From the NCBI GenBank assembly GCA_021806285.1, contig JAJZYA010000001.1, positions 1 to 35,768 of the forward strand: DNA of 35,768 nucleotides, read 5' to 3'. Source of the DNA: a bacterium (GTDB taxonomy: Bacteria > Patescibacteriota > Saccharimonadia > Saccharimonadales > UBA4665). Below, piece by piece: positions 7,493-31,553 of the stretch. The translations under genes were made by a program, and so were the position numbers. The notes beneath the pieces were generated by a model. It saw nothing but the letters and a program-made list of their open reading frames with translations. It was not told the DNA's origin and did no database searches. How positions within the stretch are numbered: the first letter of the stretch is position 1; the number at the start of each line of letters is the position of its first letter.

Positions 7493-8770
<1,278 letters not shown>

Positions 8771-8805: not shown

Positions 8806-9936
8806 CTATTTTGTTATATAGTTAGGAAAGGAACTTGCTGGAACCCATCCACTATACCCAACTCTACCCCATCCAGCTAGACCATTCATATCAGAGAATT
8901 TTATCATAGTACCATTGCTCGAAACGGCGTCAACAAGTGCAACATGGCCCTCTCCACCAAAAGCATAGGGAGTTTGAGCAATTGCTCCAACGGTCGGTAC
9001 ATGACTCACGTTCCAACCACTTAAAGCAGCATAATAGGCCCATGTAATAGCATTCCCCCAATTCGTTGGGACAGCAATTTTACTAGCTACATACCAAGTA
9101 CAATAGCCGTAGTCATAACCATTATAACCATAGCTTGGACCGCTCCAAGCATAATTAGCGCTATAGCTTGGCTGTTGATTTATTGTACCGTTCGGAATAA
9201 TTATTTTTTCACCAGGCCAAATACCTTTTATTTCAGCGTCGTTATAGGCAATGATTTGAGCAGCACTAGCGTTATATTTCTGAGCTAGAGAAGCGACTGT
9301 GTCACCTGCTTTAACGATATATACGATTCCGTTAACAGGAGGTATCAGAAGACTCTGTCCGGGTATTAAAGAATTACCTCGGAGATTATTAGACCATTCA
9401 ATACTATTTGAGGTTACACCAAATTTCTGGGCTAGAGAAGCGACTGTATCGTTAGCCTGGACTTTATATGAAATAATGTCTGCCCGAGATTTTAAAGCTG
9501 TGGTTGTGATCTGAGGTTTAGATATTACATTATTAGTTGTAGCAGCCATAGCAATTTCAGCATTTTGAGTATCAGCCTGGTTAGATATCGAAGTAGTCTC
9601 TGGTAAATTTGTTACTCGAGCAACTGTTAGTGCAATATTAGCAGAAGCAACTTGATCTAAGGGGCTCGACACTAAACCAGTGTTTTGACCACTAAAATTC
9701 GAATTAATATTATTGGCATTAGTTACATTAGTAATTAAAAATATCGCTAGAATAACTAAGATGGTGATATTAATGGAATAAAATATAACCCTAGTTTTAA
9801 GTTGAGATTTTTTAATTCTTTCTTTTTTAGGGATATCTCTAGAAAGGGTTGACGCATTTTTTTGAATATCATAAATAACACCAGAAGAACTAAGTCTTCC
9901 CTCACCATTTTTAAATTTAATATTGGGCTTATCCAT
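8806..9936 (-). CDS. membrane-anchored peptidoglycan hydrolase, 2x LysM plus C-terminal CHAP domain
   Basis: N-terminal TM (VIFYSINITILVILAIFLITNV). Two LysM repeats (YKVQANDTVASLAQKFGV...; YIVKAGDTVASLAQKYNA...). CHAP region with catalytic Cys context YGYCTWYVA and GHVALVDAV. The ATG at 9936 is preferred over the ORF-track TTG at 9951; the start is uncertain. Confidence 0.85.
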   Translation of the reverse strand: MDKPNIKFKNGEGRLSSSGVIYDIQKNASTLSRDIPKKERIKKSQLKTRVIFYSINITILVILAIFLITNVTNANNINSNFSGQNTGLVSSPLDQVASANIALTVARVTNLPETTSISNQADTQNAEIAMAATTNNVISKPQITTTALKSRADIISYKVQANDTVASLAQKFGVTSNSIEWSNNLRGNSLIPGQSLLIPPVNGIVYIVKAGDTVASLAQKYNASAAQIIAYNDAEIKGIWPGEKIIIPNGTINQQPSYSANYAWSGPSYGYNGYDYGYCTWYVASKIAVPTNWGNAITWAYYAALSGWNVSHVPTVGAIAQTPYAFGGEGHVALVDAVSSNGTMIKFSDMNGLAGWGRVGYSGWVPASSFPNYITK

Positions 9937-10008
9937 GCCTCGATTCAACAAAATTAATTATAGTTTTTTTAAAAAGGTAATATTTAAGCACCTAACTATA
10001 ACTTCACT

Positions 10009-10043: not shown

Positions 10044-10751
10044 TTAATGACTTGTTATGTGTTTAATTATCGACAATAGGATACTTAAGTCTTTTTTGTC
10101 AAATCCTGGTATATCGTTAAATTTACCTTCATCAAAGGCTGCAAGTATCTTAGACTTGGAAAAAGCAAGATTTGGATAGGCTACGTGCTTAGTATCTAAC
10201 TTTCGGATTTGATTTAAAGCTCTTCTCGACGTTTTAATATTTAATCCTAGCTCATTTTCTAAATAATCTTTAATATCATGCATAGGTAACATGTCTTCAA
10301 TTTCACTACCTCGAGAAGATTGTGGCTCAAAAGTATCTGAAGATAACACAAATTTTACAATAGCGTCTTGACCTTCTTTCTGAGCAGCTCTTATAAAAAG
10401 ACCAGTATTTTTTAAGGGTGAACTAGTAATTTCATCAATTTTATCTGATTGTTCTAAGACTTTATGATGTGATTGAGAAACTGCTTCTTTTATTGTAGCT
10501 ACTTGATCCCCATTGGTACCAAAAATGGTTACAGGAATATCTGGATTAGGGTTAGTTAAATAAGCAACCATGGTAACAGCGTTATTAAGGTTAGTACCTA
10601 AAACGAGCGTATCGGGATTAGGTGGCAACTGAACACCTAAACCGAGCACAAATAAATTGGATCCATTGGCTAGTCTACCTAAGGCCCCAACTAGTTCAAT
10701 AGGAACATTCCTTATTTCAGGTCTAAGAACTTCACCTCTTGATTCTTGCAT
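10044..10751 (-). CDS. hypothetical protein, no family recognised
   Basis: 235-aa intact ORF with an ATG start, in the same orientation as its neighbours. No TM segment or signal peptide. The C-terminal segment FNDIPGFDKKDLSILLSII is loosely helix-hairpin-helix-like. Confidence 0.5.
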   Translation of the reverse strand: MQESRGEVLRPEIRNVPIELVGALGRLANGSNLFVLGLGVQLPPNPDTLVLGTNLNNAVTMVAYLTNPNPDIPVTIFGTNGDQVATIKEAVSQSHHKVLEQSDKIDEITSSPLKNTGLFIRAAQKEGQDAIVKFVLSSDTFEPQSSRGSEIEDMLPMHDIKDYLENELGLNIKTSRRALNQIRKLDTKHVAYPNLAFSKSKILAAFDEGKFNDIPGFDKKDLSILLSIIKHITSH

Positions 10752-10785: not shown

Positions 10786-11835
10786 CTAGTTACCACACAG
10801 TTTATGGCAATATTGAGTCGTATTTGCTTGTTGTTGAGCTAAAGTGTTTGAGAAATATGTTACTCCATTATCTCCGGTTACAAAGTAAAGCCAATTAGTG
10901 GGAGCCGGATGAGTAGCGGCATACAAGGATGAGGAGTTAATAGTGCTAATTGGGGTAGGAGGGAGTCCGGGATGAAGCAAAGTATTATATGGTGAATCGT
11001 AGCTAAGACTTGGTGGCTGATTATTGGCAAGAGCTCCATAATATGCCGTTACATCTGATCCAAGATTCATTGATTGTTTTAATCTACTTAAAAATACTTG
11101 AGCTACTTGAGCTTGATCAGTCGGTTTGCTAACTTCCTGATCGATAATAGAAGCTAGTATTATTCCTTGGTAAGTAGAGAGTCCTTCGCTAGCAAAATCG
11201 GCTTGAACCTGTTGTGTTAAATGATTAGCCATTTCATTTAAAGATTCTTCTATTATGACTGAAAGAGGTGTATTCTTATTTCTTTCAAACGAATCGGGCC
11301 AAAGCAAACCTTCCATAGAATTAACATTACTAGGAACAAACTCCATGATTTTGAGGTTTCTATAATTAGCGATGTTGAGTGCATTATTAATAGCACTTTG
11401 GCTGTAACCATCTTTAAGAAAATCAGCTTTTAGTTTAAAGATGTTAGTACCTGGCAATATAGTTACTAGGTTCGAGGATATTTTACCAGAAACAATGCTT
11501 GATATTATTTGTTGAGTAGTCTCATTTGGAGAGAAATCATAGGTACCAGCCTGAAGACTATTTGAAAGATTTTGACTATTAATATATAACTGCGCTGCCC
11601 AGGAACTTTTTATAACGTGACTCGAGGCAAGCTGATCTGTTATTTCTCTCACACTACTGCCTCTTACAATATCTATAGTAATAACTTTGTGACTAGTACT
11701 AAGAGGCTTTAGCAAACTGTAATAATAATTTCGAACTATGACACTTCCAGCTATAAAAACAAAGATTATTACTATGATTAGAACCCAAATTCTTCTTGGA
11801 ACTCTTCTATATTTCTTATCTTTTTGAAATTTCAT
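10786..11835 (-). CDS. mltG: endolytic murein transglycosylase MltG (YceG-like)
   Basis: 349 aa, N-terminal TM (IWVLIIVIIFVFIAGSVIV), then a YceG-like body ending in NTLLHPGLPPTPISTINSSSLYAATHPAPTNWLYFV. The ATG overlaps the ruvX stop (TAATG). Confidence 0.85.
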   Translation of the reverse strand: MKFQKDKKYRRVPRRIWVLIIVIIFVFIAGSVIVRNYYYSLLKPLSTSHKVITIDIVRGSSVREITDQLASSHVIKSSWAAQLYINSQNLSNSLQAGTYDFSPNETTQQIISSIVSGKISSNLVTILPGTNIFKLKADFLKDGYSQSAINNALNIANYRNLKIMEFVPSNVNSMEGLLWPDSFERNKNTPLSVIIEESLNEMANHLTQQVQADFASEGLSTYQGIILASIIDQEVSKPTDQAQVAQVFLSRLKQSMNLGSDVTAYYGALANNQPPSLSYDSPYNTLLHPGLPPTPISTINSSSLYAATHPAPTNWLYFVTGDNGVTYFSNTLAQQQANTTQYCHKLCGN

Positions 11836-12254
11836 TATTTAATATCCCCGTTTATATAATCCTCTAGAATTAAGCTGGCTGCAGTTTTGTCTATATCTTC
11901 TTTAGAATATGATTTAGATCTTTGTTCTAATATTTCTTGAGCCTTTTTTGACGTTAAGAACTCATCCTGAAAGATTATTTCTAATTGTAGTTTAGATTTA
12001 ATCTGATTAACAAAATTTTTTACTTTCAAAGTTTGAGGTGTGTCTTCGGAATCCATGTTCCTAGGTAAGCCTACTATCAGTCTTGAAATATGATGCACGT
12101 CAATTAAATCTTTAAGTTTATCTATAAAATATTGATCATTACTTAGAGTTATTAAAGCTTGAGGTAAAAAGGTCGGATAAGTTGCAAGAGCCACACCAAT
12201 TCTAACATCACCCACATCTAAAGCTAGTAAATTTACGGGTTTGTCTTTAGACAT
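11835..12254 (-). CDS. ruvX: putative pre-16S rRNA nuclease / Holliday junction resolvase-like YqgF
   Basis: 139 aa. LALDVGDVRIGVALA N-terminal catalytic Asp motif, VGLPRNMDSEDT motif, DEFLTSKKA. The ATG overlaps the upstream stop (TAATG). Confidence 0.85.
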   Translation of the reverse strand: MSKDKPVNLLALDVGDVRIGVALATYPTFLPQALITLSNDQYFIDKLKDLIDVHHISRLIVGLPRNMDSEDTPQTLKVKNFVNQIKSKLQLEIIFQDEFLTSKKAQEILEQRSKSYSKEDIDKTAASLILEDYINGDIK

Positions 12255-13996
12255 TAGTTGACGGTTTTGGTTGGTTTAGCAATATGGACATGGATCTTGC
12301 TTGGATTATTCGGGGCGCTTGAAACATAGAAAGGACTCAAAGTAACTTTTACACTTGTTACATTACTGTTGCCTTCGACTATATTTTTAATTTGGGCAAT
12401 TTTCTTTCCTTCGGCTTGAGATTTAATTAAACCAACATTAATATTTGGTCCAACAATAGCCGTACTCTGGATCGTAATTTGAGTAGGATTGGTATTGCCA
12501 TTGGTATATGAGAAGCTAGCATTATTAAGACCAGTACTTAATATACTTTCAGAATTTCCAACTTGAGAACTTATATTGTTACTTAATAAGGTATTAAGAT
12601 CTTTTTTGAAGACACCATACATAGTGTATGTAATACTTTCAGTTACGGTAACACTTGAATTTTGAGAACCTACTTGGTTGTTTTCAGTTACGGTAGGTTG
12701 AGAAGAGTTAAATGTCATACCTATTGGATAATATCCATCTTGAGAAAGTCGAGAAGATAAACTACTTTTAATGGAATTATTGTTAGTTGTTATTTTATTC
12801 TGGGCATTGGTTATATCGTTTTGACTTACTACAGTTACCATATTATCCGTTCCCCCACTGGCTCCTCCAGTTGCTGAAACACCGCTATAACCTGGGACGC
12901 TGAAAGAAGTATTATTATTTTGAGTATTATAGCTACTTCCGGCTTGTTGAGCAGATATGTTTATATTTCCGGTACTATAGAGAACACACTGAGAATTGGT
13001 GGTATTATACGAAAACGTTGCTGTCGAATCGGTTACATATGTCAGATTGTTTTGAGTAATTCCCGTCCCGGCTGAAATTGAACTAGGGTCGGTAAATGGT
13101 GGCTTGACCTCACAAACATTGAAGACAACAGATCCTGAGGCTTTTGTTCCATCATTCTGTTGACCTGTTGCATTAACTGTTGCTGAGTAAGTTTTAGTAG
13201 TACTAACCTCTTTGGCTGGAATAGTATTGGAGGCTAAATTAACACTTGAAGCAGATGGGTCGATCGTAAAGCTTACATTAGTATTAACATTAGATGAATT
13301 AGTATTAATATCGATAGTTGCAGAAGGTAGAACTGCTAAAGCTACATACCCCACAATTCCAATTAATAATATAAGAACTATTAGGACAACGGCGATCTTA
13401 AATTTTTTAAAGTTTGGTACCTTAATCTTTTCTTTCTTGTCTTTTTTAGTCTTTTTAGGTTGAGGTGTAACAGAATCCTCTTGAGGAGGTTCCTGATTAT
13501 TTAATCCGGTATTGTCTAGATCGATGGTGTCTAGATCTCTGTCTAGTTTTGTTTTTACACTAGGTGCTACAGTATCGCCAGACGCCAACTCTGCAAGTGT
13601 CTTAGTTTTAGAATCTTTAAGATCTATATCTTTTGAAGGTGTATCATTTTGGTCTATTACTAAGGGTTCATCTTCATCAGCTTCAATAATAGATTCGTTG
13701 AAGACCGGGGCAGCTGGGATTTCGGGCTTACTATTTAAGGTTTTGGCGACAAATAATCCAACACCTCCAGCTAGCGGTAAGAGATTGGCTTCATTCGTTA
13801 CTAGAACTACCTTCTTGTTGACATCTTCACTTTTTCTTTTTAAAAGTTTCATGTTAACGGTGCTTTGGAAAACGCTGGCTCTTTTGGGAAGAACTAAGGC
13901 TATAACCGTAGCGCTAGAGTCTAAAACCTTATCTATAACGTTTGTTATCTCGTCATCGACATCTACGTATATGGTTGCTTTTGATGGATCTGCCAT
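12254..13996 (-). CDS. hypothetical bitopic membrane protein: ~200-aa cytoplasmic N-domain, one TM, ~355-aa Asn/Ser/Thr-rich ectodomain
   Basis: ATG at 13996 lies one nt after the TAA of the upstream FtsA-like gene (the ORF-track start at 14005 is a GTG). N-domain motif DEITNVIDKV...VLPKRASVFQSTVNMKLLKRK. Lys-rich juxtamembrane stretch. TM IAVVLIVLILLIGIVGYVALAVL (nt ~13328-13399). Ectodomain has only two Cys. Confidence 0.6.
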   Translation of the reverse strand: MADPSKATIYVDVDDEITNVIDKVLDSSATVIALVLPKRASVFQSTVNMKLLKRKSEDVNKKVVLVTNEANLLPLAGGVGLFVAKTLNSKPEIPAAPVFNESIIEADEDEPLVIDQNDTPSKDIDLKDSKTKTLAELASGDTVAPSVKTKLDRDLDTIDLDNTGLNNQEPPQEDSVTPQPKKTKKDKKEKIKVPNFKKFKIAVVLIVLILLIGIVGYVALAVLPSATIDINTNSSNVNTNVSFTIDPSASSVNLASNTIPAKEVSTTKTYSATVNATGQQNDGTKASGSVVFNVCEVKPPFTDPSSISAGTGITQNNLTYVTDSTATFSYNTTNSQCVLYSTGNINISAQQAGSSYNTQNNNTSFSVPGYSGVSATGGASGGTDNMVTVVSQNDITNAQNKITTNNNSIKSSLSSRLSQDGYYPIGMTFNSSQPTVTENNQVGSQNSSVTVTESITYTMYGVFKKDLNTLLSNNISSQVGNSESILSTGLNNASFSYTNGNTNPTQITIQSTAIVGPNINVGLIKSQAEGKKIAQIKNIVEGNSNVTSVKVTLSPFYVSSAPNNPSKIHVHIAKPTKTVN

Positions 13997-13997
13997 T

Positions 13998-15329
13998 TTA
14001 TACACTCAACATCTTATCTAATTTATCTCTTATTGATTCATTTACACCGTTATTAAAGTCCGAGGTATCAAGCCCAACTCTTAGAAGGCCCATAGCAGTA
14101 ATATAAGTATGGTCATTAACTTGGCCAGTTTGATCTGTAATGCCAACAACTTGTTCTGGTTTAATATGATGAACACTTGGTTTTTTGGTAAATGGGAGAT
14201 CCTTATACCAACTAGACTGTTCCAACTTATCTATCAACATATCTAGAGAAGATCCACCTCCACATAAAAACATTCGGTGAGGTAGATGATCAAGTTTATC
14301 GAACTCACTTAAAGCCAATTCGATCCCACTAACCCAAGTGTCAGCTGTTTTTTCGATAACAGATTCTATAATAGGTCTTTTTTGAGTAGCGATTTCGTTA
14401 GTAGATAACTTAATCTTTAATTCCTCAGCCTGGTTGAAGCTGATACCAAGTTCTTTTTCCACGCTTCTTGTAAAAGCTCGTCCACCTATTCCAAACATTT
14501 TAGTACCTTGAACACCACCCTCATTAATTACAGCAATATCAGTTGTTCCACCACCCACATCCATTAAGATGGCACTTAAGTTTTGGGAAGAATCGTTCCC
14601 TATAACAGCTCTTGAGACCGCAAAGGGTTCGGCAGCTACGGCTAAAAGATCTAAATCAAGCTCTTGAGCAGTTTTCTCAAGGGCTCCAATATGAATCAAA
14701 GGCGCAAAGGCTGTATAAAGCTGAATAACAACATCTCTACCCTGAAAGCCAATCGGATTATTAATGGGATAACCGTCGATTTCAATACTTACTAAGGCAC
14801 TGTTTACGAGACGAACATCAACATTTTTACCACCGAGCTCTAGGGCTAACTGTTGTTTAGCTCTTGCTTCAGATCTATCCTGAACTAGAGAAATGATCTT
14901 TTCCATTTCAACAGCATCAATTGCAAGTGTAGGGTCTTTTCTAGTAACTCTAACACTATTAGTCGTTCCCTTAACAAGCTCTCCAGCTATTCCAAGTATG
15001 GCAGTACGAGCACTTACTCCAGCTTGTGTCTCTGCCTCGTGTAGGGCTTTATCACAATTCTCAACAACCGCGGCAATATCAGCTATAGCTCCGGCCTGCA
15101 TATCTGTTAAAGCTTGATGTTGTCGTCCTACCCCAATAATTTCAAGTGTTCCAGGATTCGCAATGGAAGTTTTGGCTATGAGAGCTTTTACATATTCGGT
15201 ACCAATATCTAAACCAACTAAATACTGCTCTTTAACCCTCTTATTTCGAATAGAATTACTCTTTTTAGAAGCTTTATCTAAGGCAATCTGAGCTAGATTC
15301 TTCGAACTATTTTTAATTTTTTCTAGCAT
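13998..15329 (-). CDS. actin-fold ATPase of the FtsA/PilM type
   Basis: 443 aa. Phosphate-1 VGLDIGTEYVKAL, phosphate-2/adenosine-type ILMDVGGGTTDIAVI, FGIGGRAFTRSVEKELGISFNQAEELK, FLCGGGSSL. AGAGGA Shine-Dalgarno before the ATG. No ftsZ is adjacent. Confidence 0.75.
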   Translation of the reverse strand: MLEKIKNSSKNLAQIALDKASKKSNSIRNKRVKEQYLVGLDIGTEYVKALIAKTSIANPGTLEIIGVGRQHQALTDMQAGAIADIAAVVENCDKALHEAETQAGVSARTAILGIAGELVKGTTNSVRVTRKDPTLAIDAVEMEKIISLVQDRSEARAKQQLALELGGKNVDVRLVNSALVSIEIDGYPINNPIGFQGRDVVIQLYTAFAPLIHIGALEKTAQELDLDLLAVAAEPFAVSRAVIGNDSSQNLSAILMDVGGGTTDIAVINEGGVQGTKMFGIGGRAFTRSVEKELGISFNQAEELKIKLSTNEIATQKRPIIESVIEKTADTWVSGIELALSEFDKLDHLPHRMFLCGGGSSLDMLIDKLEQSSWYKDLPFTKKPSVHHIKPEQVVGITDQTGQVNDHTYITAMGLLRVGLDTSDFNNGVNESIRDKLDKMLSV

Positions 15330-15394
15330 ATCCTCTAGTTTAACATAAGTTTAATCAATTTTATCCTTGAAATATTAAAATCTACTCAAAAATT

Positions 15395-17290
15395 TTATAC
15401 TAATGCAGCCTTGATTCTTCGTATACCTGAAGAACTCGATTCTTCTTTTAAGATCTTAAATCTTTTACCTTGTTCTTTTAATATGGCCGTATGCTCAACA
15501 TGAGGGCCACCACAAATTTCAAAACTAAAAGGTTTTGATTCTCCCTTAGCCTGCATTCTATAAACTTTTACTCTTTTACCGTATCTGTCGCCAAATGCAC
15601 CCAAGGCATGAAGCTTATCCATGGCTTCTTTGGTATCGTGCTCTTCCCAGGTCACAATCAGATCTTTATCTATCTGTTCATTCACTATTCTTTCGACCTC
15701 AGCAATTTGTTCTGGGGTCATTTTATCGGGATGTGAAAAATCGAAGCGTAATCTTTCTTCGGTTATATTACTACCGTGTTGAATAACATGATCACCCAAA
15801 ACCTCTCTTAAAGCCTGATACATTAAATGAGTAGCCGTGTGATATTTTTTATGAATTAAAGTCTGTCCGCCAAGTCCACCCTTAAAGACACCTTTAGCAG
15901 CCGTTTGGCTTCTTTTGCGTTGTTGTTCCATCAGATCTAAATATTCTTTTTTGTAGTCTTTTTTAAGTTTAATGTTTCGGCTAAAAGCTTCTTCTAGACT
16001 AAGCTCATAAGGAAACCCAAAAGTATCTTGAAGTTTAAACAGGTCAGCCCCGCTTAAACCCTTATCTTGCAGTTTACTTAATTCTCTTAAGCCCTTTCTT
16101 AAGGTCTGGCTAAAAATGTTTTCTTCCTTATTCAGAGTTTCAACTACTTTTTGTTTAACAGCCTTAATCTCCGGAAAGTCTGGTTCATAAAGAGACAAAA
16201 TTAACTGGCTAATTTCCGCTATAAACTTATCTTCTATTCCTAAATTAAAACTAAACCTTATTGCCCTTCGGATTAAACGGCGCATTACGTAACCTTGTTC
16301 TTTATTACTTGGTACGACACCATCAACCGCCAAGAAGACCGCTCCTCTAAGATGATCGGCAATTATTCTCATAGAATTAGTTTCCACTTCATAAGTTTTA
16401 TTAGAAAGAGATTCCAGTTTTTGAATTATTGGAAAAAGTAAACTAATTTTAAAGACGTCAGGGCTATTAATCGCAGCAGCTGCAATTCTCTCTAATCCAC
16501 CTCCATAATCTACATTTCTTTTAGGTAACTTTACAAAACCATCGCTAGTTTTTAAATACTCCATGAAGACCGAATTACCAAGTTCAATATATCTACCACA
16601 ATCGCAGTTAAAGTGACACTTTTTGCCATACTTCGGATCATGTTCGACTTGGGGAAATAAATAAAAAACTTCTGTGTCTGGTCCACCTGGTTCGTTAAGC
16701 GGCATATCTTCCGGTTTACCAGATCTACTCCACCAATTCTTATCCGAATAAAAAAGAATTCGAGCTCCTTGAGTTCCTAATCTGTAACCGTCTTCTTCAC
16801 TTCCAATTTCTGCCGAGGCATGATCTATACCAATCTCTTTAAAGAGATTAGTCCATATTTTGGCACTAATTTCATCTTTGGGAATTTTGTTTTTAGCATC
16901 TCCAATAAAACAAGTCACATAAATTCGGCTCGGATCTAGCTTTATTTCTTTGGTTAAAAATTCAAAAAACCATTGAATCTGTTCTTCTTTAAAATAGTCT
17001 CCAAGACTCCAGTTTCCGAGCATTTCAAAAAAGGTTGTATGACGATTATCTCCTATTTCATCAATGTCCTGAGATCTTAAACATGTTTGACTATTAGTGA
17101 GGCGCCTCCCCTGAGGGTGCTCTTCTCCCAGTAAATAAGGTATTAGGGGCTGCATTCCACTACCCGTAAATAGAGTGGTTGGATCATTTTGAGGAACTAA
17201 GAGAGCTCTAGGTATAACTTTATGCCCCCTGTCCTCAAAAAATTTTAAATAAGCTAAACGAACTTTTCTAGCATCCATAATATCTACCAT
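15395..17290 (-). CDS. alaS: alanine--tRNA ligase, short form ending after the editing domain (no C-Ala domain)
   Basis: Class II catalytic core (RLAYLKFFEDRGHKVIP, FTGSGMQP, FFEMLGNWS, GGGLERI). Editing domain HTATHLM...CGGPHVEHT. Ends ...GIRRIKAALV. Start set at the ATG at 17290 (MVDIMDARK); ATG 17278 is also possible. The ORF-track start at 17341 would overlap mnmA. Confidence 0.93.
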   Translation of the reverse strand: MVDIMDARKVRLAYLKFFEDRGHKVIPRALLVPQNDPTTLFTGSGMQPLIPYLLGEEHPQGRRLTNSQTCLRSQDIDEIGDNRHTTFFEMLGNWSLGDYFKEEQIQWFFEFLTKEIKLDPSRIYVTCFIGDAKNKIPKDEISAKIWTNLFKEIGIDHASAEIGSEEDGYRLGTQGARILFYSDKNWWSRSGKPEDMPLNEPGGPDTEVFYLFPQVEHDPKYGKKCHFNCDCGRYIELGNSVFMEYLKTSDGFVKLPKRNVDYGGGLERIAAAAINSPDVFKISLLFPIIQKLESLSNKTYEVETNSMRIIADHLRGAVFLAVDGVVPSNKEQGYVMRRLIRRAIRFSFNLGIEDKFIAEISQLILSLYEPDFPEIKAVKQKVVETLNKEENIFSQTLRKGLRELSKLQDKGLSGADLFKLQDTFGFPYELSLEEAFSRNIKLKKDYKKEYLDLMEQQRKRSQTAAKGVFKGGLGGQTLIHKKYHTATHLMYQALREVLGDHVIQHGSNITEERLRFDFSHPDKMTPEQIAEVERIVNEQIDKDLIVTWEEHDTKEAMDKLHALGAFGDRYGKRVKVYRMQAKGESKPFSFEICGGPHVEHTAILKEQGKRFKILKEESSSSGIRRIKAALV

Positions 17291-17313
17291 TTTATTAATT
17301 CTATTTAAGATAA

Positions 17314-18360
17314 TTAAACTATTATTCCTCCTCCAATACAATATCCCTGATCATAAACAACAGCTGATTGTCCAGGTGAAACTGCCTTAAGTGGATCTTG
17401 TAATCTGATAATAGCTTTTGAACCTGATTTTTCAAGTTGACACTGAATTAGAGGAGCCCGATGTCGAATACGAACTTCAACTGATTGGTTATTAATTTGA
17501 TAGTTTGGATAAGTTTGGTAAAAATTTTCAAGATTTAATTGGTCTGACCACAGTTTTTGATCATCCAATTTATTGGTTACATAAACTATGTTTTTAGCTA
17601 TATCTTTAGATGTCACATAATAAGGTAAACCACCAGAAACATTGAGTCCGTGTCTTTGACCGATAGTATAAAAGATTGCTCCCTCATGTTTACCAACAAC
17701 TATGTTATTTTGATCCATGATTGGACCTTCTTCCTGTTCGCCTAGTTCACTTATTAAGAAATCTTTTATTCCGACCTCGCCGACAAAACAAATTCCTTGA
17801 GAATCTTTTTTATTATAAGTTGGAAGATTATATTTTTGAGCTAATTTTCGAACCTCAGGTTTTAAATAATCACCTATTGGCATTAAAGTCTTAGATAAGG
17901 CCTTTTGACTCATCCTATATAAAAAATAGGTTTGATCTTTATTTTGATCTTTCGCCATCATTAGATGATTATTTTTAATTCGAGCATAATGTCCAGTTGC
18001 AACCAAGTCAGCGCCTTCATTAAGAGCGGTATCGAGAAATAGTTTAAATTTAATCTCCTGATTACACATAATATCAGGATTAGGAGTCAATCCTTCTTTA
18101 TAGGCTTCAATCATATAATCGACCACTTTTTGGCGGTATTGTTTCTCGAAATCAAAAACTTTAAAAGGTATACCTAAATTAACAGCAACCCTTTTAGCAT
18201 CCTGATAATCTTCTTTCCATGGGCACTCATATCCTAATATGTCTTTAGTCCAATTTTTCATAAAGACTCCTACCACGTTATAGCCTTCTTTTTTAAGAAG
18301 TGCTGCAGTAAGTGAACTATCTACTCCACCTGAAAGACCTACATATACAACTTGAGACAT
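17314..18360 (-). CDS. mnmA: tRNA-specific 2-thiouridylase (tRNA U34 2-thiolation)
   Basis: 348 aa. PP-loop GLSGGVDSS, catalytic Cys contexts NPDIMCN and SQGICFVG, ATGHYAR. Confidence 0.95.
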   Translation of the reverse strand: MSQVVYVGLSGGVDSSLTAALLKKEGYNVVGVFMKNWTKDILGYECPWKEDYQDAKRVAVNLGIPFKVFDFEKQYRQKVVDYMIEAYKEGLTPNPDIMCNQEIKFKLFLDTALNEGADLVATGHYARIKNNHLMMAKDQNKDQTYFLYRMSQKALSKTLMPIGDYLKPEVRKLAQKYNLPTYNKKDSQGICFVGEVGIKDFLISELGEQEEGPIMDQNNIVVGKHEGAIFYTIGQRHGLNVSGGLPYYVTSKDIAKNIVYVTNKLDDQKLWSDQLNLENFYQTYPNYQINNQSVEVRIRHRAPLIQCQLEKSGSKAIIRLQDPLKAVSPGQSAVVYDQGYCIGGGIIV

Positions 18361-27646: not shown

Positions 27647-28897
27647 CTATTCTCTCCGATCTACATAATTTCGACAAAAGTCTTCAAAGACAGCATTTGT
27701 CCAACCAAACCCTTCTTGAGATGGATAAACACCTTTAAAGGGTGGTTTTTCGGGTCGTACAACGTTGTATTTTTCAATAAAGTTATGATGAATAATAAAC
27801 CAGTTGAGATTAGTTTTAAGCCACTTCATAGCTATCGTTCGAGCTTCTTTATGATAACCATATTTTTCGAGGCCTCTCACGACAAACATATGTAAAGGAG
27901 CCCAGCCATTTGGATAAGCCCATTGAGTTGGCATCGAACCTAAAACGAACTGACCAACCGGAAGAGTATCAGTTGTAGCAAGCCCGCCCCTATACTCAAA
28001 TCGTTTTAATTGTTTAACTAAGCTTTTAGCCATATTAGCGTCAACCATTCCAGCCCATAGCGGGACATAAGCAGCTAAGGAATAGATCGGTCCTTTTTTA
28101 TTTTTAAGATAATTATAATCAAAATAAAATTTTTTAATTTTATCCCACATTAACTCATTAATCACTGCTTTTCTTTGATTCGCTAAATCTTCCCAACGGG
28201 CAGCTTCTCTTCTATTGTTTAGGATTTTAGATGCTTTTGAAAAATCCATTTCGTATTTATATAAGAAGGCATTTAAATCAATTGGTAGAAAATTTAAAGC
28301 TTTTCGATTAAATCTAGGTGTCATATCCCATCCACTTTCAGCTTCGGCTAAATCATGTAATAAATTAGAGTCTGTGTATCTAGAAAGACCTTTATATACG
28401 TTGCGTAGATTAGGCTTCGTAGTTCCCATCCATACAATTTTATATTCATTTTGAGCGACCGTAATTTTGTCTTCAAGCCATTTATTATCTAATTTGTAAG
28501 TATTATAAATATCAAAAATTAAAGAAGTTAAAAGAGGAGGCTGAGATCTACCCATAAGATAAGTTCGTGATGCATTAGGTATAATCTTAAATCTGTTAAA
28601 TAAATAAATGATATTATCTAAAATCCCAAGCACGAGATCTTTATGCTCTTCATCCAAAAGACCTTGAACTATAAAGTAACTATCCCAATAGTACATTTCA
28701 TTAAAATCAAAACCTAAGACAGAAGTAACCGAGGGTACGATATAGGGATTTGGTAATCCCAGTAAACTCTCATCATCCTTGGGATGATAGCAAGTTAACT
28801 CACTCCAATAACTATGGATATATTCCCTGGCAGGTTGAACTTCTTCCTTAGTTAGACTTACGTCCGATCTTAATGATACTAATTTTCTTATATTCAT
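27647..28897 (-). CDS. alpha,alpha-trehalase, glycoside hydrolase family 37 (compact, apparently cytoplasmic)
   Basis: 416 aa. GH37 signature 1 region FNEMYYWDSYF. Catalytic-acid context AESGWDMTPRF. Signature 2 QWAYPNGWAPL. Catalytic-base context FIEKYNV. No signal peptide and no obvious Shine-Dalgarno. Confidence 0.88.
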   Translation of the reverse strand: MNIRKLVSLRSDVSLTKEEVQPAREYIHSYWSELTCYHPKDDESLLGLPNPYIVPSVTSVLGFDFNEMYYWDSYFIVQGLLDEEHKDLVLGILDNIIYLFNRFKIIPNASRTYLMGRSQPPLLTSLIFDIYNTYKLDNKWLEDKITVAQNEYKIVWMGTTKPNLRNVYKGLSRYTDSNLLHDLAEAESGWDMTPRFNRKALNFLPIDLNAFLYKYEMDFSKASKILNNRREAARWEDLANQRKAVINELMWDKIKKFYFDYNYLKNKKGPIYSLAAYVPLWAGMVDANMAKSLVKQLKRFEYRGGLATTDTLPVGQFVLGSMPTQWAYPNGWAPLHMFVVRGLEKYGYHKEARTIAMKWLKTNLNWFIIHHNFIEKYNVVRPEKPPFKGVYPSQEGFGWTNAVFEDFCRNYVDRRE

Positions 28898-29518: not shown

Positions 29519-30343
29519 TTAATGAAGTAAATTAAAAAGCTTTATCCAGGTATCTAAACTTAGTTCTTGAGCTCGAATTTTTGGATTTAGTTTCAATTTT
29601 TCTAAGCTTACCGGGATTTCATTTTTATAGACATTTTTAAGATTATTTTGAAGAGTTTTTCTTTTTGAACTAAAAGCCACTTTTATTAATTTAAATAGTT
29701 TTTGACTATCTGATTTATTTAGGGGCAAATTCTTTTTTGGCTCTAATATTACTATCATAGAATCTACTTTCGGAATTGGTTCAAAGAGATCCCTTCGAAC
29801 AAATGGACCTTTATAGACATTAAAATAATACTGAGCAATAAGTCCTAGTACGGAATAATCTTTAGGTCCAGCACTAAGACGTTCGGCAATTTCTTTCTGG
29901 ACCAGTAGAATTGTCTTAGCTGGTTTATTATCTAAGTCAGCAAGTATACGAATAAGATTAGAAGTTAGGTAGTATGGTATGTTGGCTACGATTTTATATT
30001 CTTTAGGTAATTTACTAAAATCAAATTTTAGAATACTTTCGTTATATATTTCAAAATCTTCCAGCTTCAAATCTATTAACATTTGAGATAAAACAGGGTC
30101 TACCTCTACGGCTATAACATGACATTTTTTAATCAATTTCAAGGTCAAATTACCAGTTCCTGGACCTATTTCTAGAACATTGTCTTTCTTTGATAGTTCG
30201 GCTAAATCAACTATTTTATCTAGGATGACTGGATCTTTTAGCCAATGTTGTCCTAAGCTCTTGTTAGCTTTTACATTACCAGTTTCTGTTATGTACCCAG
30301 TGGATATAGGCATTGTACCATCCTCCATATCTAGCATTTGCAT
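29519..30343 (-). CDS. rsmA: 16S rRNA (adenine1518/1519-N6)-dimethyltransferase
   Basis: KSLGQHWL (compare GQNFL), SAM motif VLEIGPGTGNLT, ANIPYYLTS. All four candidate ATGs (30343, 30337, 30328, 30313) overlap the upstream gene by 38-68 nt. Confidence 0.9.
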   Translation of the reverse strand: MQMLDMEDGTMPISTGYITETGNVKANKSLGQHWLKDPVILDKIVDLAELSKKDNVLEIGPGTGNLTLKLIKKCHVIAVEVDPVLSQMLIDLKLEDFEIYNESILKFDFSKLPKEYKIVANIPYYLTSNLIRILADLDNKPAKTILLVQKEIAERLSAGPKDYSVLGLIAQYYFNVYKGPFVRRDLFEPIPKVDSMIVILEPKKNLPLNKSDSQKLFKLIKVAFSSKRKTLQNNLKNVYKNEIPVSLEKLKLNPKIRAQELSLDTWIKLFNLLH

Positions 30344-31553
30344 AAGAATTACACCACTCTAGCTGCGTAATCGGGTTTGTGGCCCAATCCGCACCAGCAC
30401 TGGACATTTTATATCCAGGAGTAGCTTGACATAAACCATATCCATTAGGAGTATAAGCATTATCGGGAATGGCCGGACAATAATGCTCGCCCTGGGCTTT
30501 AGTGGGGCACCAACCAGATTCATGACTAATTATATAGTCTGCATACTGATAATCGTTTGGAGGTATTCCAGCTAGAGCCATATCTCCTTTTATACCACTC
30601 AGACTGGTCCCTTCGACGACTATTTCTGTAACAGGTTGAACAGTTACGATTGTCTGCATTTCAGTCGATGAAACAACTAAATTATTTTGGGTTTGATCTT
30701 CATAGGTAATAACTTCTTGACCTGCAGAACCTTGCTGCCTGACAGCACTTGTGCCGTAAGCCAAACTTGAAGAATAAATTGTTTGAATCGGCATAGGGAT
30801 TGATTGAGTTATTGTCGAAATTTTAATTCCTTTTCTTACTATATAGACGACTTTGTTGGCTGTAAGAGTAGAATCTAAGGCTGGTACCACCTCGTTTTTT
30901 GATATTAATTTAATATGCTCTTTTTTAATAAGCTCACCCACGGTTTTAGCATGTGTTCTAATTAAAATATTTTTGCCATACAGGTTCAAATTAATGGGCG
31001 TAGCTGGGTTGATAACTACACTCTGTCCAATAACACCACTTTTTAGAAAATTTGATGTAGGAGTGGCATAAACATAGTCTTCTGGATAAATTTTAATTCC
31101 AGCCTGTTGCACCACCGCTCTTGGAGTTTTGGCGGCTGAATATGTAAAAACTACGCCACTAGGAGTATTGATGGCAATTGGTTTAGCTCTAAAAATATTA
31201 ATTCTAAAGTCATCTTGATTAATGGAAGTGTTTAAGGCTGGTTCAACAACGTCACCGTGATGTAATACGATGTGAAGCTTAGCTAATAATATCTTAACCG
31301 TCTTATCTTTAGTTGGCACGACTTGTTGAATACCATCATAAGATATAATTACTATTTTGGAATCTGGGACAACTTCGATTGTTTGACTATTTTGAACAAA
31401 ATGATAAAGAACTAAAGTAACTAAGCTTAAAGATAAAATCGTAATAACAGGAACCTTTACTCCCGGATGCCTAATGATATGTCTAAGCCTTCTTATCTGT
31501 CTTCTTTTGAATCGGATAAGCTTATATAAAAATGATCGTTTATTTAGCTTCAT
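30276..31553 (-). CDS. YabE/RpfB-like cell-wall protein: TM, DUF348-like repeats, G5 domain, C-terminal lysozyme-like (Apf/IsaA-type transglycosylase) domain
   Basis: 425 aa. TM VPVITILSLSLVTLVLYHF. Three repeats of the TVxxLL...I.L...D.V.P type. G5-like QQGSAGQEVITYEDQT...VTEIVVEGT. C-terminus IISHESGW...NGYGLCQ...ARYGGWYNAYIHW with four Cys. Confidence 0.75.
   Translation of the reverse strand: MKLNKRSFLYKLIRFKRRQIRRLRHIIRHPGVKVPVITILSLSLVTLVLYHFVQNSQTIEVVPDSKIVIISYDGIQQVVPTKDKTVKILLAKLHIVLHHGDVVEPALNTSINQDDFRINIFRAKPIAINTPSGVVFTYSAAKTPRAVVQQAGIKIYPEDYVYATPTSNFLKSGVIGQSVVINPATPINLNLYGKNILIRTHAKTVGELIKKEHIKLISKNEVVPALDSTLTANKVVYIVRKGIKISTITQSIPMPIQTIYSSSLAYGTSAVRQQGSAGQEVITYEDQTQNNLVVSSTEMQTIVTVQPVTEIVVEGTSLSGIKGDMALAGIPPNDYQYADYIISHESGWCPTKAQGEHYCPAIPDNAYTPNGYGLCQATPGYKMSSAGADWATNPITQLEWCNSYANARYGGWYNAYIHWVHNRNW

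Follow-up and report, generated by a model that had tools for sequence, protein, structure and literature searches.

A Patescibacteria-wide pair of an actin-like ATPase and a bitopic membrane protein, distinct from FtsA and PilM, with a putative role at the cell envelope

Three described bacterial systems pair an actin-family protein with a bitopic membrane protein. FtsA, the actin homologue of the divisome, tethers FtsZ and binds the ends that bitopic division proteins extend into the cytoplasm, such as residues 1-29 of FtsN; PilM, an actin-like ATP-binding protein of the type IV pilus inner-membrane platform, is encoded immediately upstream of its bitopic partner PilN and is translationally coupled to it; and MreB, the scaffold of the elongasome, has as its adaptor RodZ, in which a small cytoplasmic fold is joined by basic juxtamembrane residues and a single transmembrane (TM) segment to an outer domain rich in beta structure. 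Much of bacterial diversity falls within Patescibacteria (the candidate phyla radiation, CPR), yet next to nothing is known of the growth, shape and division of these tiny host-attached cells. Here we describe, in a 35,768-nucleotide (nt) stretch of DNA from a member of the Saccharimonadales (TM7), class Saccharimonadia (assembly GCA_021806285.1, contig JAJZYA010000001.1, positions 1 to 35,768 of the forward strand; hereafter the window), a gene pair between alaS and ruvX-mltG that encodes an actin-like ATPase of 443 amino acids (aa) and a bitopic membrane protein of 580 aa (hereafter the partner). The pair is like FtsA-FtsN, PilM-PilN and especially MreB-RodZ in its logic, but by the tests of membership applied it belongs to none of them. 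Present throughout the phylum, it may form a module that links the cytoskeleton to the cell envelope.

All genes of the region lie on the minus strand. The ATPase gene (13998..15329) ends in a TAA (14000-13998) that is separated by a single A from the ATG of the partner gene (12254..13996, including the stop codon at 12254-12256), so that the junction reads TAA-A-ATG; the partner stop and the ruvX start overlap as TAATG at 12256-12252, and the ruvX stop and the mltG start as TAATG at 11837-11833, all just as an initial annotation of the window had read them. An in-frame GTG at 14005 would make the partner 583 aa, but the ATG at 13996 is supported as its start because homologues and the database entry begin MAD. 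The two following genes encode RuvX, a YqgF-family nuclease (11835..12254; Pfam RuvX, E 1.9e-32), and MltG, a YceG-family endolytic transglycosylase (10786..11835; Pfam YceG, E 7e-63; TIGR00247, 185 bits). An AT-rich spacer of 65 nt (15330..15394), with a Shine-Dalgarno-like AGAGGA site 3 nt before the ATPase ATG, forms the upstream edge of this tight four-gene block and separates it from alaS (15395..17341; Pfam tRNA-synt_2c, E 1.6e-106). No consensus promoter was found in the spacer and a scan for promoters and terminators did no better than on shuffled sequence, so that it is the spacing of the genes that argues for an operon.

A scan of one genome per GTDB species gave 80 loci, all from Saccharimonadia. 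The ATPase gene was directly upstream of the partner gene and on the same strand in all 78 that have upstream DNA, thus bearing out the conserved co-occurrence that the initial annotation had made a touchstone, and ruvX was immediately downstream of the partner in all 80. Wherever the contig was long enough, mltG, a LysM-CHAP gene and obg followed; in the window these are a LysM-LysM-CHAP peptidoglycan hydrolase (8806..9951, minus strand; Pfam LysM, E 9e-19, and CHAP, E 9e-14), the conserved downstream neighbour, and next to it obg (7493-8767). The conserved upstream neighbour alaS was found in 69 of the 80 loci, the rest being without a detectable alaS match. Median gaps were 3 nt between ATPase and partner, about -11 nt between partner and ruvX and -4 nt between ruvX and mltG (77 species); the median gap between mltG and the LysM gene was 235 nt, and that between alaS and the ATPase gene varied among species from 23 to 4707 nt, with unrelated inserted genes. 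Because spacers are near zero or overlapping inside and gaps are long and variable outside, the tight unit comprises ATPase, partner, ruvX and mltG. In 12 Saccharimonadia species a protein of 134-383 aa is encoded between alaS and the ATPase gene on the same strand (for example locus L022, 7437-8588), and the one inspected has a basic N-terminus and hydrophobic TM-like segments. As other species hold unrelated inserts there, this junction is a hotspot for gene gain, and the inserted genes, being variable among species, were rejected as extra components of the module.

The pair was also found far from Saccharimonadia. Metagenome contigs were scanned with a hand-designed DNA pattern for the sequence QS[IV]VNLKLLK, a variant of the partner motif that occurs in only 3 of the 80 Saccharimonadia loci, and 103 of the 120 matches encode the N-terminal domain of the partner (N-domain), 81 of them in distant loci. 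In these, the ATPase is 40-49% identical to the window protein (AlaRS, about 40%) and its gene lies directly upstream of the partner gene on the same strand in 48 of the 53 loci with enough upstream DNA, with gaps of 1-214 nt. The distant partner open reading frames (ORFs) encode 520-666 aa with a single TM segment; alaS, where detected, was always upstream (23 of 23 loci), and ruvX immediately downstream in at least 18 of 50. Placement of the pair between alaS and ruvX-mltG, noticed at first in the window, is the usual order. Exact-sequence look-ups identified the distant organisms as members of the Parcubacteria group, Candidatus Moranbacteria and Patescibacteria group bacteria, and since the pairing is kept in these distant Parcubacteria and Moranbacteria loci the module is phylum-wide. 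The lineage-specific module proposed initially is therefore a conserved one, but its scope is the whole of Patescibacteria rather than this genome alone. A full locus of the Saccharimonadia type also occurs on three contigs (L018, L032 and L036; DATHNF010000044.1, DATLRC010000018.1 and DATJNI010000007.1) deposited as Verrucomicrobiia, Candidatus Dormiibacterota and Candidatus Sulfotelmatobacter, respectively, which are probably mis-binned or mislabelled contigs of metagenome-assembled genomes. In the literature searched we found no text describing the pair, its conservation or its function; both proteins are present in databases under misleading names and in the supplementary tables of two papers, and the supplement of Meheust et al. 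holds no 'baseplate' annotation that identifies the partner family.

The partner of the window had no Pfam or NCBIfam match and a profile search against PDB sequences found nothing, which argues against its belonging to an already characterised family. Its own family is large: 837 homologues were detected, all of about 560-600 aa, and a search of a representative library gave 9026 clusters at E<=1e-3, with close relatives only among the matches listed. An alignment of homologues and an AlphaFold2 (AF2) model (mean predicted local distance difference test, pLDDT, 79.5) divide the protein into four parts. Residues 1-97 (13706..13996) form a cytoplasmic alpha/beta domain of order beta-alpha-beta-alpha-beta-alpha-beta (pLDDT 75-90), and residues 98-188 (13433..13705) a disordered, acidic, Pro-containing linker (pLDDT <50; 22 Asp/Glu in 91 residues), variable in length among homologues; the cytoplasmic domain of about 200 aa described initially is thus really a folded domain of about 97 aa and a disordered linker of about 90, the acidic/Pro linker, the Lys-rich stretch and the single TM segment having been read correctly. 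Residues 189-224 (13325..13432) hold the Lys-rich juxtamembrane stretch with a VPNFxxF motif, of which P194, F196 and F199 are invariant in Saccharimonadia, and then the TM helix (about 200-222), which is preceded by KKTKKDKKEKIKVPNFKKFK and has its Kyte-Doolittle maximum of 3.17 at residue 201. Residues 225-580 (12257..13324) form an extracytoplasmic, beta-rich ectodomain (pLDDT about 90) that, in agreement with the first description, is long (356 aa), rich in Asn/Ser/Thr (42%) and provided with two cysteines, Cys295 and Cys337. The most conserved part of the family is the N-domain, with the core motif LVLPKRAxxxQSxVNxKLLK, in which Q44, S45, V47, N48, K50, L52 and K53 are invariant even against Parcubacteria homologues, and this domain is the candidate docking site for the ATPase. 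In the orthologue from the cultured Saccharibacterium Southlakia epibionticum (Wang et al. 2023, PMC10633639) it was parsed as 'SpoIIAA-like' (Table S2).

The ATPase carries the actin-fold motifs LDIGTEYVKA, MDVGGGTTDIAV and GGRAF...AEELK, as had been noted from the sequence, and 89 of its positions, every nucleotide-binding motif included, are at least 95% conserved across Patescibacteria. Its match to Pfam FtsA (PF14450, E 4e-16) is followed by weaker ones to PilM_2, EutA, MreB and others. Against the FtsA equivalog profile TIGR01174 it scores 123.4 bits, under the cut-off of 175.85 and covering only positions 2-260 of 371; there is no match at E<=0.01 to the Pfam domain SHS2_FTSA (PF02491), which canonical FtsA of S. 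epibionticum does match. On the PilM side, the match to PilM_2 (27.3 bits, just over the cut-off of 27) is partial, spanning profile positions 155-297 of 340, and pilM TIGR01175 gives 43 bits against a cut-off of 133. The best PDB sequence match is FtsA (7q6f, E 1.8e-16), with PilM 3jc8 at 2e-8. The AF2 model (pLDDT 75; predicted TM-score, pTM, 0.75) shows an actin core with terminal helices (residues 2-29 and 433-442) modelled at low confidence. In Foldseek, its top structure was a complex of FtsA with FtsN(1-29) (7q6i, E 5.5e-26, TM-score 0.76), followed by Staphylococcus aureus and Thermotoga maritima FtsA and PilM (about 1e-19 to 1e-22) and by MreB (about 1e-9); alignment to FtsA structures extends over about 400 columns (TM-score 0.73-0.76 on the target), far better than to MreB. 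The extra 1C-type domain that replaces subdomain 1B in the fold is a trait common to FtsA and PilM and does not discriminate between them. These profile, PDB and fold matches place the ATPase on the branch of the actin family that holds FtsA and PilM, with neither family's curated threshold clearly passed.

That the ATPase is a third paralog, neither canonical FtsA nor PilM, is borne out by its gene neighbourhoods and by S. epibionticum, whose locus is identical (PMC10633639 Tables S1/S2): SEML1_0657 alaS; SEML1_0656, the ATPase, named 'PilM' and placed in KEGG K03590; SEML1_0655, the partner, named 'baseplate J/gp47 family protein'; SEML1_0654 ruvX; SEML1_0653 mltG; SEML1_0652, a LysM protein; and SEML1_0651 obg. 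Elsewhere this genome has an adjacent, essential ftsA-ftsZ pair (SEML1_0174/0175) and, in its pilus locus, pilM-pilN (SEML1_0104/0105), and from this relative we take it that a canonical ftsA-ftsZ exists in the window's own genome too. The initial annotation had named, as the finding that would undo its proposal, an ATPase that is simply the sole canonical FtsA; the score under the equivalog cut-off and the separate ftsA-ftsZ and pilM-pilN pairs of the relative speak against this. The labels 'FtsA', 'PilM' and 'baseplate J/gp47' are accordingly corrected here as misleading.

The ATPase might nevertheless act in the divisome as an additional FtsA, binding FtsZ or canonical FtsA and regulating, jointly with the partner, septation or the asymmetric, budding-type division of Saccharibacteria. 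Its nearest relatives in sequence and structure are indeed FtsA proteins, with which it shares the fold and extra domain, intact ATP motifs and a predicted C-terminal helix; the S. epibionticum orthologue sits in K03590; and the cytoplasmic part of the bitopic partner could dock on the ATPase as FtsN(1-29) docks on FtsA, FtsA being known to bind such tails and the top structure match being that very complex. The ATPase gene, however, is never next to ftsZ in the loci examined. No ftsZ occurs in the window (the absence beside the ATPase had been remarked on from the start) or within 10 kb past either end, nor ftsA in the two 10-kb flanks, and the FtsZ signature GGGTG[ST]G is absent within about 10 kb of the module from all 203 loci, some 2.3 Mb in total (1.48 Mb in 83 loci, namely 80 module loci and three window-flank extensions, and 0.82 Mb in 120 metagenome loci). 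The C-terminal 90 aa of canonical S. epibionticum FtsA, taken from the flank of a published deletion construct, have no similarity to the window ATPase, and end in a clear amphipathic helix, GGFIKTLLSKFKP, to which the C-terminus of the ATPase is unrelated; a search with the same 90 aa returned five short fragments, none linkable to the window's genome. Unlike FtsA, the ATPase falls short of the equivalog cut-off, lacks SHS2_FTSA and begins with an N-terminal helix or with MG[IL]FSK, and its S. epibionticum orthologue is non-essential in transposon sequencing (Tn-seq), where ftsA and ftsZ are essential (SEML1_0174 ftsA being called growth deficit/essential/essential, GD/ES/ES; PMC10633639). 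That species also has its divisome set elsewhere: FtsA, FtsZ, an FtsQ-like protein, FtsL, FtsW and a class B penicillin-binding protein (FtsI) are present. We therefore consider a divisome accessory role unlikely.

A variant type IV pilus or competence platform, with the ATPase as its PilM and the partner in the role of PilN/PilO, would suit the gene order, in which as in pilM-pilN an actin-like ATP-binding protein is encoded immediately upstream of a translationally coupled bitopic protein, and PilM structures match the fold at E about 1e-18 to 1e-19. The NCBI pipeline names the S. epibionticum orthologue 'pilus assembly protein PilM', the PilM_2 score is just past its cut-off, and an ectodomain segment of the S. 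epibionticum partner was parsed as like the pilus-binding domain of phage G3P, with a weak Foldseek match of our partner model to 4eo0 (E 0.2); type IV pili are, moreover, CPR-enriched and essential (PMC6744442, PMC10633639). Yet the canonical pilM-pilN pair lies in the S. epibionticum pilus locus, the gene neighbourhoods examined hold no pil genes beside the module, TIGR01175 is far from its cut-off and the matches to FtsA are consistently stronger than those to PilM. The partner has no PilN or PilO signature, is three times larger than PilN, presents a 97-aa folded domain on a tether instead of a short N-terminal peptide, and has a barrel in its ectodomain rather than the ferredoxin-like fold of PilN/PilO. 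On this evidence a pilus platform seems quite unlikely.

The closest likeness in layout is to MreB-RodZ. The partner is built like RodZ, with a small cytoplasmic fold, basic residues next to the membrane, one TM segment and an outer domain rich in beta structure; its locus is linked to the gene for MltG, a peptidoglycan enzyme that belongs to the elongation machinery; and the start of the distant ATPase orthologues resembles the N-terminal amphipathic helix of some MreBs. There is, however, no homology: the ATPase matches MreB only at E about 1e-9, and the N-domain of the partner is alpha/beta rather than helix-turn-helix and is not accompanied by a RodZ C-terminal domain. One homologue (P0095, in a single JGI record) bears the label 'RodZ', which we reject as nothing supports it. 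No MreB, MreC or RodZ is annotated in S. epibionticum.

Both ends of the ATPase hold predicted helices that could bind the membrane or the partner. The C-terminal one (433-442, SIRDKLDKMLSV; low pLDDT) is conserved and reads ILRRAVKMIQK in distant orthologues. Parcubacteria-type orthologues (loci L085-L203, for example L089, 3513-4775) begin MG[IL]FSK[IL][LF]G, a candidate N-terminal membrane-binding motif. The Saccharimonadia proteins have in its place a longer basic N-terminal helix (MLxKxK...), so that this element has apparently been remodelled between classes.

Among 51 Saccharimonadia species, mean pairwise identity was 72% for the ATPase, against 68% for AlaRS and 59% for Obg, which places the ATPase under stronger constraint than an aminoacyl-tRNA synthetase. 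Within the partner it was 69% in the N-domain, 46% in the TM region, 44% in the ectodomain and 27% in the linker; conservation of the N-domain far above that of the ectodomain is as expected if the former contacts a conserved cytoplasmic partner. With AlaRS and Obg distances regressed out, ATPase distances correlated with those of the partner N-domain (0.55) and MltG (0.56) but not RuvX (0.07), a rate covariation that is only suggestive because species pairs are non-independent, and hence weak evidence. A fitness role has been measured in S. epibionticum, which is genetically tractable: in the Tn-seq data the partner gene SEML1_0655 is class II essential (normalised reads 373 to 34 to 24) and the ATPase gene SEML1_0656 shows a growth deficit (2427 to 660 to 221; calls non-essential/non-essential/growth deficit, NE/NE/GD); RuvX is essential after T0 and MltG dispensable (PMC10633639 Table S1). 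Polarity on ruvX is an unlikely cause of the partner phenotype, because insertions in the ATPase gene upstream are tolerated.

These data also bear on whether the two genes are mere neighbours, independent housekeeping genes riding in the alaS-ruvX-mltG operon for reasons of history or expression. The block does hold the functionally unrelated alaS and ruvX, and the Tn-seq phenotypes of ATPase and partner differ in strength. Near-zero spacing between the two genes is nonetheless kept down to about 40% identity while surrounding gaps and inserts vary, the cytoplasmic domain of the partner is unusually constrained and its rate co-varies with that of the ATPase, and both proteins are flagged as Patescibacteria-enriched core families (PMC10633639), consistent with a shared distribution. 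Co-location alone is on these grounds improbable.

Within the ectodomain, residues of about 270-370 (12887-13189, minus strand; about 100 aa) form a beta-barrel of the GlxA/baseplate-J type. Foldseek was run with the full-length multidomain model, and its matches are local and marginal: the top PDB match was GlxA of Streptomyces lividans (5lxz, E 8e-4, 134 columns, 20% identity), with a cyanophage baseplate (8kea) at E 2e-3, and in BFVD phage Baseplate-J-like proteins matched at E 1e-4 to 2e-4 over 110-180 columns. By profile, the barrel is seen in some family members. The Pfam GlxA beta barrel domain (PF21110) matched 27 of the 46 aligned sequences of a distant set, which includes 45 distant family members (best E 7.8e-11), and Pfam Baseplate_J (PF04865) matched 6 of the 46 (best 9e-9) and one of 52 Saccharimonadia members (E 0.0066); phrog_6, 'baseplate wedge subunit', matched a single member, P0065 (residues 271-368, E 3.5e-9). 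The window protein itself has no match to PF04865 at E<=1, no sequence match to PF21110 and no PHROG match of note, and it is through Foldseek that its barrel is seen. Motifs of the type TGxxNxGxKAxGxV...PAGTG...AQxxGxxYN are shared with baseplate J/gp47/gp6 and with domain 2 of GlxA, in which the barrel is extracytoplasmic and membrane-tethered as in the partner; the copper-oxidase domain of GlxA is lacking in the partner. The resemblance to baseplate-J that the initial annotation had proposed thus proves to be a remote homology, with exactly the motifs it named lying in the barrel, but it is limited to this one domain, and the protein is not a component of a baseplate, nor does it form part of a tail or injection machine. 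That the partner is a baseplate J/gp47 wedge protein left over from a prophage or contractile injection system, as the S. epibionticum label, the phrog_6 match and the phage proteins found by Foldseek might suggest, is very improbable given that the likeness is confined to the barrel and more often fits the profile of GlxA, an extracytoplasmic bacterial enzyme, that the window partner has no Pfam, NCBIfam or notable PHROG match, that no tail, sheath, spike or other phage genes occur in the window or its extensions, and that the protein, which is anchored in the membrane and bears a cytoplasmic domain, shows vertical conservation within a housekeeping locus throughout the phylum.

All four of these alternatives (divisome accessory, pilus variant, mere co-location and phage remnant) are less well supported than the reading towards which we lean, namely that the two proteins are coupled in function and that the envelope is what they act on; that they are tied specifically to wall remodelling is a more tentative proposal. 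On the reading we favour, the 443-aa protein would be an active ATPase of FtsA/PilM type, separate from divisome FtsA and pilus PilM, that probably uses its terminal helices to assemble at the cytoplasmic side of the membrane. The 580-aa protein would serve as a transmembrane adaptor, its N-domain, on the flexible acidic tether, probably docking on the ATPase, with a possible contribution in Saccharimonadia from the juxtamembrane VPNFxxF peptide, and the barrel-containing ectodomain would sit in the zone of the wall. ATP-dependent assembly inside the cell could then position or cluster the ectodomain outside, where it may organise wall or surface remodelling with MltG, the probably co-transcribed glycan-strand terminase, and the LysM-CHAP hydrolase. 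Such a module would follow a RodZ-MreB-like or FtsN-FtsA-like logic in organisms without MreB, MreC and RodZ. While the gene layout, the folds, the deeply conserved pairing and gene order, the difference from FtsA and PilM and, in one cultured species, a role in fitness are shown, direct binding of the two proteins, polymerisation, membrane attachment and a cell-wall target are what we infer here.

Several observations weigh against this reading. Loss of the ATPase does far less harm than loss of the partner, so that the partner has an ATPase-independent function, and since MltG is dispensable the essential role of the partner is not through MltG alone; given these unequal phenotypes and the dispensable MltG, the simplest version of the module model is incomplete. 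The terminal helices of the ATPase are weakly amphipathic (hydrophobic moment, muH, 0.4-0.55, that of the C-terminal helix being about 0.45) and of low model confidence, and VPNFxxF is missing from the most distant homologues and is not conserved outside Saccharimonadia-like lineages. No fusion proteins of ATPase and partner were seen, no ligand of the beta-barrel is known, and linkage to the non-envelope genes alaS and ruvX shows that synteny alone does not define function.

A bolder and more doubtful extension is that the ATPase defines a fourth class of bacterial actin at the membrane, next to FtsA, PilM and MreB and specific to Patescibacteria, and that together with its partner it forms the chief scaffold for morphogenesis outside the divisome in these ultrasmall epibionts, which lack MreB. 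By organising, from within the cell, the enzymes that remodel the wall, such a scaffold could steer growth at the pole or by budding, or construct the surface in contact with the host. Few of the core gene sets enriched in CPR have a recognisable mechanistic handle; this module has one in its actin-family ATPase, and with its fitness phenotype it offers a concrete entry point into CPR cell biology that would add a branch to the FtsA/PilM/MreB family.

Of the other genes near the module, a 235-aa ORF (10044-10751, minus strand) that separates mltG from the LysM-CHAP gene matches nothing in Pfam or NCBIfam and has, among the 80 Saccharimonadia loci, a detectable copy only in the closest relative (L001, 33% identity); it looks like a lineage-specific insertion in an otherwise conserved gene order. 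The alaS ORF, as called mechanically, starts at a TTG and overlaps the end of mnmA by 28 nt (17314-17341); similarity to AlaRS sets in at an in-frame ATG some 21 codons further on (MDARKVRLAYLKFF...), which is probably the real start. The remaining genes of the window are housekeeping genes, among them uvrA, obg, an ATP synthase operon, mnmA, metG and uvrD.

Beyond the high-coordinate end of the window, at a distance of a few kb (L082, 2857-7814) and beside pgk and tpi, lies a set of type IV secretion system (T4SS) genes with two T4SS_pilin genes (one also with TrbL_3), a TraC-like gene, a VirB4/TraG-type ATPase and a CHAP hydrolase, which fits the conjugation-like T4SS described for Patescibacteria. 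Within the window, this very small genome also encodes a trehalase-family glycoside hydrolase (27647-28897, minus strand) and a G5/DUF348 protein (30276-31553, minus strand), the latter with the N-terminal architecture of wall enzymes of the resuscitation-promoting-factor type, and both may relate to host-derived carbohydrate or wall biology of the epibiont.

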